Positions 22,118 to 23,554 of a DNA stretch of 64,000 nucleotides are shown here, one piece after another. A program made the position numbers and the translations under genes. The stretch's first letter is position 1. The number at the start of each line of letters is the position of its first letter. The stretch lies in the NCBI RefSeq assembly GCF_057098645.1, contig NZ_CM169472.1. One strand, given 5' to 3'. Below the pieces are notes generated by a model. The model was not told the origin of the DNA and made no database searches. It saw only the letters and a list, made by a program, of their open reading frames with translations.

Positions 22118-23554
22118 ATGACAAGGATAAAAATAAACGCACGCCGTATCTTCAGCTTATTGATTCCTTTTTTCTTTTTCACTTCTGTTCACGCTGAACA
22201 AACGGCTGCTCTCGCAAAACCTGTAACTGTGGAAGCGAAGAATGAAACCTTTGCCCCGCAGCATCCCGATCAATATCTCTCCTGGAAAGCCACCTCGGAA
22301 CAGTCAGAGCGTGTTGACGCCCTGGCGGAAGATCCACGGCTGGTGATCCTGTGGGCGGGGTATCCCTTCTCGCGCGATTACAACAAGCCGCGTGGACATG
22401 CCTTTGCTGTGACCGATGTGCGTGAAACCCTGCGTACCGGTGCGCCGAAAAATGCTGAAGATGGTCCGCTACCGATGGCGTGCTGGAGTTGTAAAAGCCC
22501 GGATGTGGCGCGTCTGATCCAGAAAGACGGCGAAGATGGCTACTTCCACGGTAAATGGGCGCGCGGCGGCCCGGAAATCATCAACAACTTAGGTTGTGCC
22601 GACTGCCATAACACCGCCTCACCAGAGTTCGCCAAAGGCAAACCGGAGTTAACCCTTTCCCGTCCGTATGCGGCTCGCGCGATGGAAGCCATTGGTAAAC
22701 CTTTTGAGAAAGCCGGACGTTTCGACCAGCAATCGATGGTTTGCGGTCAGTGCCATGTGGAGTATTACTTCGACGGCAAAAACAAAGCGGTTAAATTCCC
22801 GTGGGATGACGGCATGAAAGTCGAAAATATGGAGCAGTATTACGACAAAATTGCCTTCTCTGACTGGACTAACTCCCTGTCGAAAACGCCAATGCTGAAA
22901 GCGCAGCACCCGGAATATGAAACCTGGACAGCGGGCATTCACGGTAAAAACAACGTGACCTGTATCGACTGCCATATGCCAAAAGTGCAGAACGCCGAAG
23001 GCAAACTCTACACCGACCATAAAATTGGTAATCCGTTTGATAACTTCGCCCAGACTTGTGCGAACTGCCATACCCAGGATAAAGCTGCCTTGCAAAAAGT
23101 GGTCGCGGAACGTAAGCAGTCGATTAACGACCTGAAAATCAAGGTTGAAGATCAATTGGTTCACGCTCACTTCGAAGCGAAAGCGGCGCTGGACGCAGGC
23201 GCGACGGAAGCCGAAATGAAGCCGATTCAGGACGATATCCGTCATGCCCAGTGGCGTTGGGATCTGGCGATCGCTTCCCACGGCATTCATATGCACGCAC
23301 CGGAAGAAGGTCTGAGGATGCTCGGTACGGCGATGGATAAAGCGGCGGATGCACGCACCAAACTGGCGCGCCTGCTGGCGACCAAAGGCATCACCCATGA
23401 AATCCAGATCCCGGATATCTCGACCAAAGAGAAAGCCCAGCAGGCCATTGGCCTGAACATGGAACAAATCAAGGCCGAGAAGCAGGACTTCATCAAAACG
23501 GTGATCCCGCAGTGGGAAGAGCAGACACGTAAAAACGGTCTGTTAAGCCAATAA
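22118..23554 (+). CDS. nrfA: Cytochrome c552 nitrite reductase, pentahaem catalytic subunit
   Basis: 478 aa from [15 protein letters not shown]...; four CxxCH haem motifs plus the CWSCK lysine-ligated active-site haem motif. Confidence 0.95.

Follow-up and report, generated by a model that had tools for sequence, protein, structure and literature searches.

In Escherichia coli K-12 the pentahaem nitrite reductase NrfA (PDB 1GU6, 2RDZ, 3L1T and 3TOR) binds haems 2–5 as bis-His haems on CXXCH motifs and carries a fifth motif, CWSCK, at the active site. A review of the family describes proximal lysine ligation at haem 1 and the second-sphere Arg/Tyr/His triad of the enzyme (PMC12285233). Attachment of haem to CXXCK in E. 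coli requires NrfEFG, and when these proteins are absent the Ccm system attaches only the four CXXCH haems (PMC12285233; PMC3601427); the genetic evidence for the requirement is that cited by the two reviews as Eaves 1998 and Hussain 1994. NrfEFG is a variant of System I built from CcmF/CcmH paralogues, in which NrfE is a paralogue of CcmF. NrfF is similar to the N-terminal portion of CcmH and NrfG to CcmI, its C-terminal portion; NrfG also docks on the C-terminal region of NrfA (PMC12285233; PMC3601427).

Other organisms mature the same kind of enzyme differently. The NrfA of Shewanella oneidensis (PDB 3UBR) is a CXXCK pentahaem protein of the same family, yet the organism has no nrfEFG and both motif types are handled by CcmF with CcmI (PMC12285233). 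The active-site haem of the Wolinella succinogenes NrfHA system (System II, PDB 1FS7) is likewise bound at a CXXCK motif and needs a dedicated attachment factor, but the redox partner there is NrfH rather than NrfBCD and haem is attached by NrfI, a CcsBA-type lyase unrelated to NrfEFG (PMC12285233). In Campylobacter jejuni and Anaeromyxobacter, NrfA has the same fold and belongs to the same family but carries five CxxCH motifs and needs no special lyase (PMC12285233).

The nrf locus described here lies in a 64,000-nt stretch of DNA, the whole of which is referred to as the window, spanning dnaB to crfC; nrf itself is flanked by acs upstream and gltP downstream. With a probability of about 95%, the locus is a canonical, intact enterobacterial nrfABCDEFG operon, and no sequence feature in it speaks against this reading. 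Its NrfA is of the lysine form and equals the K-12 enzyme in length, in all five haem motifs (CWSCK among them) and in the residues of the active site and the Ca site; it differs from that enzyme by P32L, V155I and A470T. It matches the S. oneidensis protein with E = 1.8e-197, and in contrast to that organism the gene is followed by a dedicated lyase. The lyase genes share with those of K-12 their order, the nrfE-nrfF and nrfF-nrfG overlaps, the WWD motif and four histidines of NrfE, the CPQC motif of NrfF and the TPR character of NrfG.

The nrfA gene and its haem motifs

Three features define the enzyme at the level of the gene:

22118–23554, plus strand: nrfA, pentahaem cytochrome c552 nitrite reductase of 478 amino acids, from its open reading frame, family profiles and comparison with PDB structures
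22481–22495, plus strand: codons of CWSCK (C122–K126), attachment site of the catalytic haem 1, from the motif scan; sequence TGCTGGAGTTGTAAA
22595–23071, plus strand: four CxxCH motifs of haems 2–5, at codons 160–164, 209–213, 282–286 and 314–318

On re-translation the nrfA reading frame runs from an ATG start to a TAA end over 478 codons with zero internal stops. The sequence-only reading had reported a CWSCK motif in NrfA accompanied by four CxxCH motifs. Both statements held: the former lies at residues 122–126, with the coordinates exact, and a motif scan of the translation returned exactly four of the latter (CADCH at 160, CGQCH at 209, CIDCH at 282 and CANCH at 314). The protein contains ten cysteines in total, all of them inside the five haem motifs. 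Membership of the family is clear from the scores against NF008339 (867.8 bits, cut-off 595) and TIGR03152 (821.7 bits, cut-off 692.5).

The N-terminus consists of a basic segment, a hydrophobic segment and then VHA, as in an exported protein, with a signal peptide at residues 1–26 and a mature chain from E27, the residue from which the crystallised mature chain also begins. From E27 onwards the protein aligns end to end with PDB 1GU6 and 2RDZ. Only 3 of 452 residues of the mature chain differ from 1GU6, none of them at a haem or active-site position, and R106, K126, E215, Y216, K261, Q263 and H264 are all kept. Given this near-identity to solved E. coli structures, together with the review literature (PMC12285233), K126 would be the proximal ligand of haem 1, and by the same comparison and the literature the enzyme is predicted to carry out the six-electron reduction of nitrite.

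Layout of the operon

Six genes follow nrfA on the same strand:

23599–24165, plus strand: nrfB, pentahaem electron donor to NrfA with five CxxCH motifs, 188 amino acids (NF008659, 311 bits against a cut-off of 184)
24162–24833, plus strand: nrfC, Fe-S subunit with the twin-arginine leader SRRQFL, 223 amino acids (TIGR03149, 418.7 against 377.6)
24830–25786, plus strand: nrfD, integral-membrane quinol-oxidising subunit, 318 amino acids (TIGR03148, 466 against 347.6)
25806–27524, or from 25866, plus strand: nrfE, CcmF paralogue of the haem lyase (NF007691, 1128–1158 against 394)
27517–27900, plus strand: nrfF, CcmH-N-like thiol-disulfide oxidoreductase with CPQC at residues 44–47, 127 amino acids (TIGR03147, 209 against 159)
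27897–28493, plus strand: nrfG, TPR protein binding apo-NrfA, 198 amino acids (NF007692, 395 against 306)

The seven genes are tightly spaced, with junctions of +44, -4, -4, +19, -8 and -4 nt, and nrfB to nrfG are free of frameshifts and stops. All seven products score above the curated NCBIfam cut-offs. NrfG matches PDB 2E2E with E = 6e-103 and NrfE matches the CcmF of T. thermophilus (6ZMQ). Compared with E. coli CcmF, NrfE is 38% identical, carries its WWD motif, WGGWWFWDPVENAS, at residue 238, and has four histidines, located in FHPP, LHSL, SVHAF and VAHAG, that align with those of CcmF.

The 44-nt spacer between nrfA and nrfB contains a further element:

23561–23580, plus strand: GC-rich hairpin (-18.1 kcal/mol, z = -3.26 against shuffles)

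The hairpin, which is the same in K-12, has an inner stem of 8 bp with no T-run after it. A role in stabilising the mRNA or in reducing expression of the distal genes is possible. No RNA family was found inside the nrf operon by Rfam. After nrfG, no terminator was returned by a simple promoter and terminator scan, the counts of which were no higher than in shuffles.

The start codon of nrfE

The start of nrfE is annotated in two ways. Translation from CTG 25806 gives the 572 residues of the RefSeq annotation of O145, and translation from GTG 25866 gives the 552 residues of the K-12 reference, which is therefore 20 residues shorter. The sequence-only reading had placed nrfE, nrfF and nrfG at 25866–28493; these reading frames exist and end at 28493, but nrfE probably starts 60 nt further upstream, at a conserved non-canonical CTG rather than at GTG 25866. 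The preference for CTG is a moderate one and draws on the surroundings of the codon, the family profiles and related genomes.

CTG 25806 lies 19 nt after the nrfD stop behind a candidate Shine-Dalgarno sequence, AGAGGTGG, at 25795–25802, and there is no in-frame ATG, GTG or TTG in nrfE before 25842. The 20-codon extension lets the match to NF007691 begin at profile position 1 and raises its score by 30 bits; the score against TIGR03145 rises by 18 bits. The extension also supplies the M-x-P-E-x-G start of the family, in which E7 and G9 do not vary, and P6 hardly varies, among 16 aligned CcmF/NrfE N-termini, and BLASTP against E. coli CcmF pairs NrfE residue 5 with CcmF residue 2 (LPEVG and MPEIG).

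Related genomes retain the same arrangement. A Salmonella contig carries the same CTG GAC... directly after an otherwise unalignable intergenic stretch, and over the 20 codons of nrfE it differs from E. coli by 5 synonymous and 2 non-synonymous changes. The CTG is also found in a second Salmonella contig, where it follows the nrfD stop by one nucleotide. At the homologous position, a metagenome contig from a more distant member of the enterobacteria shows GTG, preceded by GGTGA. TTG 25842 of E. coli nrfE is CTG in Salmonella and is thus not a conserved alternative start. GTG 25866 is conserved and might still serve as a secondary start.

The CTG 25806 start is already called by the RefSeq pipeline, and a narrow literature search found no relevant paper on a CTG start of nrfE. 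If the CTG start is true, the 552-residue reference NrfE misses 20 N-terminal residues including the invariant Glu and Gly, and the weak codon may keep the lyase low relative to NrfA. The K-12 nrfE start would then be 60 nt too far downstream, which is relevant to cloning or deleting the gene.

Probable attachment of haem by NrfEFG and Ccm

According to the sequence-only reading, attachment of the CxxCK haem needs NrfE with NrfF and NrfG, and the operon is complete for a functional nitrite reductase. The E. coli reviews agree with the former, with the qualification that the need for NrfF is disputed, one study having reported it to be non-essential (Grove 1996, as cited in PMC3601427). The latter stands at the level of the operon, where every gene is intact, but Ccm is also needed. 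No ccm genes occur in the 64,000-nt window. Because ccm is required for the four CxxCH haems and for haem delivery and lies outside the window, ‘complete’ describes the operon but not the maturation pathway as a whole, and an intact operon alone is insufficient for activity. Coverage of ccm (ccmABCDEFGH) reaches at least 80% in 5417 of the 5426 complete E. coli genomes, which makes its presence in the source genome very probable.

The part played by NrfEFG could also be accessory, with CcmF and CcmH able to attach haem to CxxCK by themselves. The maturation of a CXXCK NrfA through CcmF and CcmI in S. oneidensis, which proceeds without nrfEFG, offers a precedent for this, as does the report of a non-essential NrfF in E. 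coli. Set against them are the E. coli genetic evidence for the requirement of NrfEFG at CXXCK that the reviews cite, and the report that NrfG and S. oneidensis CcmI are not interchangeable (PMC12285233). In addition, nrfE, nrfF and nrfG are kept intact beside nrfABCD across E. coli. An accessory role is consequently very unlikely, and NrfEFG is taken here as the probable dedicated lyase of the catalytic haem.

Strain comparison and substitutions in NrfA

The nrf region (21700–28600) differs from O145:H28 chromosomes by 2 mismatches in 6901 nt and, judged by this agreement, its source is an O145:H28-like E. coli. The operon is common in the species: 5414 of the 5426 complete genomes cover at least 80% of it. 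Relative to K-12, the NrfB, NrfC and NrfD proteins are identical, and NrfE, NrfF and NrfG carry 8, 4 and 4 substitutions, respectively.

In nrfA the only differences from the O145:H28 relatives are those giving P32L (nt 22212) and V155I (nt 22580), and in no complete E. coli genome does the best hit match either of them. It is conceivable that the operon is present but the enzyme impaired, with these substitutions or those in NrfE, NrfF and NrfG disturbing folding, insertion of haem 2 or recognition by the lyase. The segment 22190–22600 has at least two mismatches against every complete E. coli genome, both nrfA differences are non-synonymous, V155I lies five residues before the CxxCH motif of haem 2, and the lyase proteins carry the substitutions counted above. 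The positions themselves argue otherwise. P32, the sixth residue of the mature protein, lies in its N-terminal tail, and the 2RF7 chain aligns only from query residue 37. Column 155 varies across the family (V, T, Q, A, K, H, S and I in homologues), and the change from V to I is conservative. Every motif and catalytic residue is intact and the family scores are all well above their cut-offs. Impairment is therefore scarcely credible; P32L and V155I are probably neutral, and the reading of an intact, canonical operon is retained.

Conservation of the CxxCK lysine

To describe conservation at the motif, NrfA was searched with phmmer against 1.84 billion representative proteins clustered at 50% identity, the best 149 matches were aligned, and motif columns were counted over the 89 aligned stretches that cover the motif and share less than 70% identity with the query. 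Both cysteines of CxxCK are kept in 86 of these 89 divergent stretches. The fifth position is K in 69 and H in 16 of them, so that CxxCK, with lysine predominant and histidine the main alternative, is a conserved feature of the family rather than a chance occurrence. The homologues with H at this position correspond to the CxxCH NrfA subgroup of the review (PMC12285233). The His columns of the four CxxCH motifs are near-invariant among the NrfA homologues, and at each of the seven positions R106, K126, E215, Y216, K261, Q263 and H264 the residue found here is the majority residue of its column.

That CxxCK is a chance feature with no special role, the proximal ligand coming from elsewhere, has in its favour only that lysine is, a priori, common in proteins and is effectively refuted by these column counts, by the identity of the motif and its context with the crystallised E. 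coli enzyme, and by the lysine ligation at haem 1 described in the review.

Promoter and leader of nrf

The published geometry of pnrf, with FNR bound at -41.5 and NarL/NarP at -74.5 (PMC5434802), can be laid over the acs-nrfA intergenic region as follows:

21943–21958, plus strand: NarL/NarP 7-2-7 site, TAACTCTAAAGTGGTA, centred at -74.5, read from the sequence and identical to K-12
21977–21990, plus strand: FNR site of pnrf, TTGATTAAAGACAA, centred at -41.5, from the published geometry and identical to K-12
22010–22025, plus strand: extended -10 element TG-n-TACACA with its hexamer at 22013–22018 and a predicted +1 at 22025, from the -41.5/-74.5 geometry

Application of the published distances places +1 at 22025, the nrfA ATG at +94 and a GGA at +101 to +103. 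The centre of the NarL/NarP site, 21950.5, is 74.5 nt upstream of this predicted +1, and the centres of the two sites are 33 nt apart. The position of the GGA agrees with the published p+102A substitution in the CsrA GGA motif of the nrf leader (Godfrey et al. 2017; PMC5434802).

A scan of the window with the FNR consensus (TTGAT-N4-ATCAA, at most 2 mismatches) gave 49 hits against about 29 expected and was rejected as too unspecific to identify the site. Because the pattern alone is not significant, the FNR site was assigned from the published geometry. The simple promoter scan, with counts no higher than in shuffles, also missed pnrf.

Relative to K-12 the intergenic region has two SNPs, at 21916 and 21963, both outside the FNR and NarL/NarP sites and the -10 element, which are thus unchanged. 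At position -7 (22018) the window has the A of K-12, and the -7T up-mutation of pnrf, which is reported as restricted to O157:H7 (PMC5434802), is therefore absent.

The small ORF ytcB (18 codons, b4821 in K-12) is intact at 21965–22021 and overlaps the FNR site and the -10 region; the SNP at 21963 falls 2 nt before its ATG. The nrfA leader at 22034–22098 folds as two hairpins; taken as a whole, its folding does not reach significance (z = -1.7). The second hairpin, 22080–22098, looks like a terminator when read on the minus strand, where a T-run comes after its stem.

Other features of the window

The complete genome closest to the window is O145 RM9872, but identity with that strain is ruled out: the two differ by 25 SNPs, an indel of 18 nt and a further difference of 414 nt. 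The indel, near 3260, is an extra ATCTTTGGCATAAGAGAA in RM9872 and lies inside a small ORF marked as a frameshifted pseudogene in the record. The 414-nt difference lies at 52765–53168, in phnM (52491–53627, minus strand), which the RM9872 record annotates as 723 nt encoding only the C-terminal 240 residues. Truncation of phnM in the window was considered and rejected, since direct comparison shows that the RM9872 record, not the window, lacks about 400 nt; the gene here is intact and encodes 378 amino acids. As a result of this offset, annotation coordinates derived from the record are shifted by 414 nt beyond 52765.

Elsewhere in the window, codon 140 of fdhF (31121–33268, minus strand) is an in-frame TGA, for selenocysteine, and a SECIS_2 element (Rfam, 87 bits) is located just downstream of that codon at 32802–32856. 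Between yjcE and actP lies a pentapeptide-repeat gene (16136–17428, minus strand) annotated as the T3SS effector EspX5. The sRNA sraL (Rfam, 153 bits) is found at 12280–12420 on the minus strand, downstream of soxR. Four intergenic naRNA4/REP-type elements were recognised by Rfam, at 19658–19729, 30263–30333 and 59650–59730 on the plus strand and at 62206–62282 on the minus strand. From yjcS to yjdP (about 40790–49934) the window encodes a response regulator, a carbohydrate kinase, an aldolase, a lyxose/mannose isomerase, a sugar ABC transporter and a hybrid sensor kinase; at this place K-12 presumably carries the als/rpiB genes.

Proposed mechanism and implications

By analogy with the described E. 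coli system, transcription would start from pnrf, activated by FNR at -41.5 and NarL/NarP at -74.5. NrfA would be exported by Sec, and System I (Ccm) would place the four bis-His haems on its CxxCH motifs. With NrfG, the TPR protein, docked on NrfA, the dedicated lyase of NrfE, NrfF and NrfG would then attach the fifth, catalytic haem to C122-W-S-C-K126. K126 would act as the proximal iron ligand, leaving the distal side free for nitrite, and the active site would be completed by R106, Y216 and H264 together with a Ca2+ site formed by E215, Y216, K261 and Q263. Electrons would pass from menaquinol through NrfD/NrfC and NrfB to NrfA.

The finding is correct but ordinary, having been known as textbook biology since the 1990s, and its importance beyond annotation is small. 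For the organism it means that an O145:H28-like strain would keep, as enteric E. coli typically do, its periplasmic nitrite- and NO-detoxifying respiration, with nrf regulated as in K-12 and without the promoter up-mutation specific to O157:H7.
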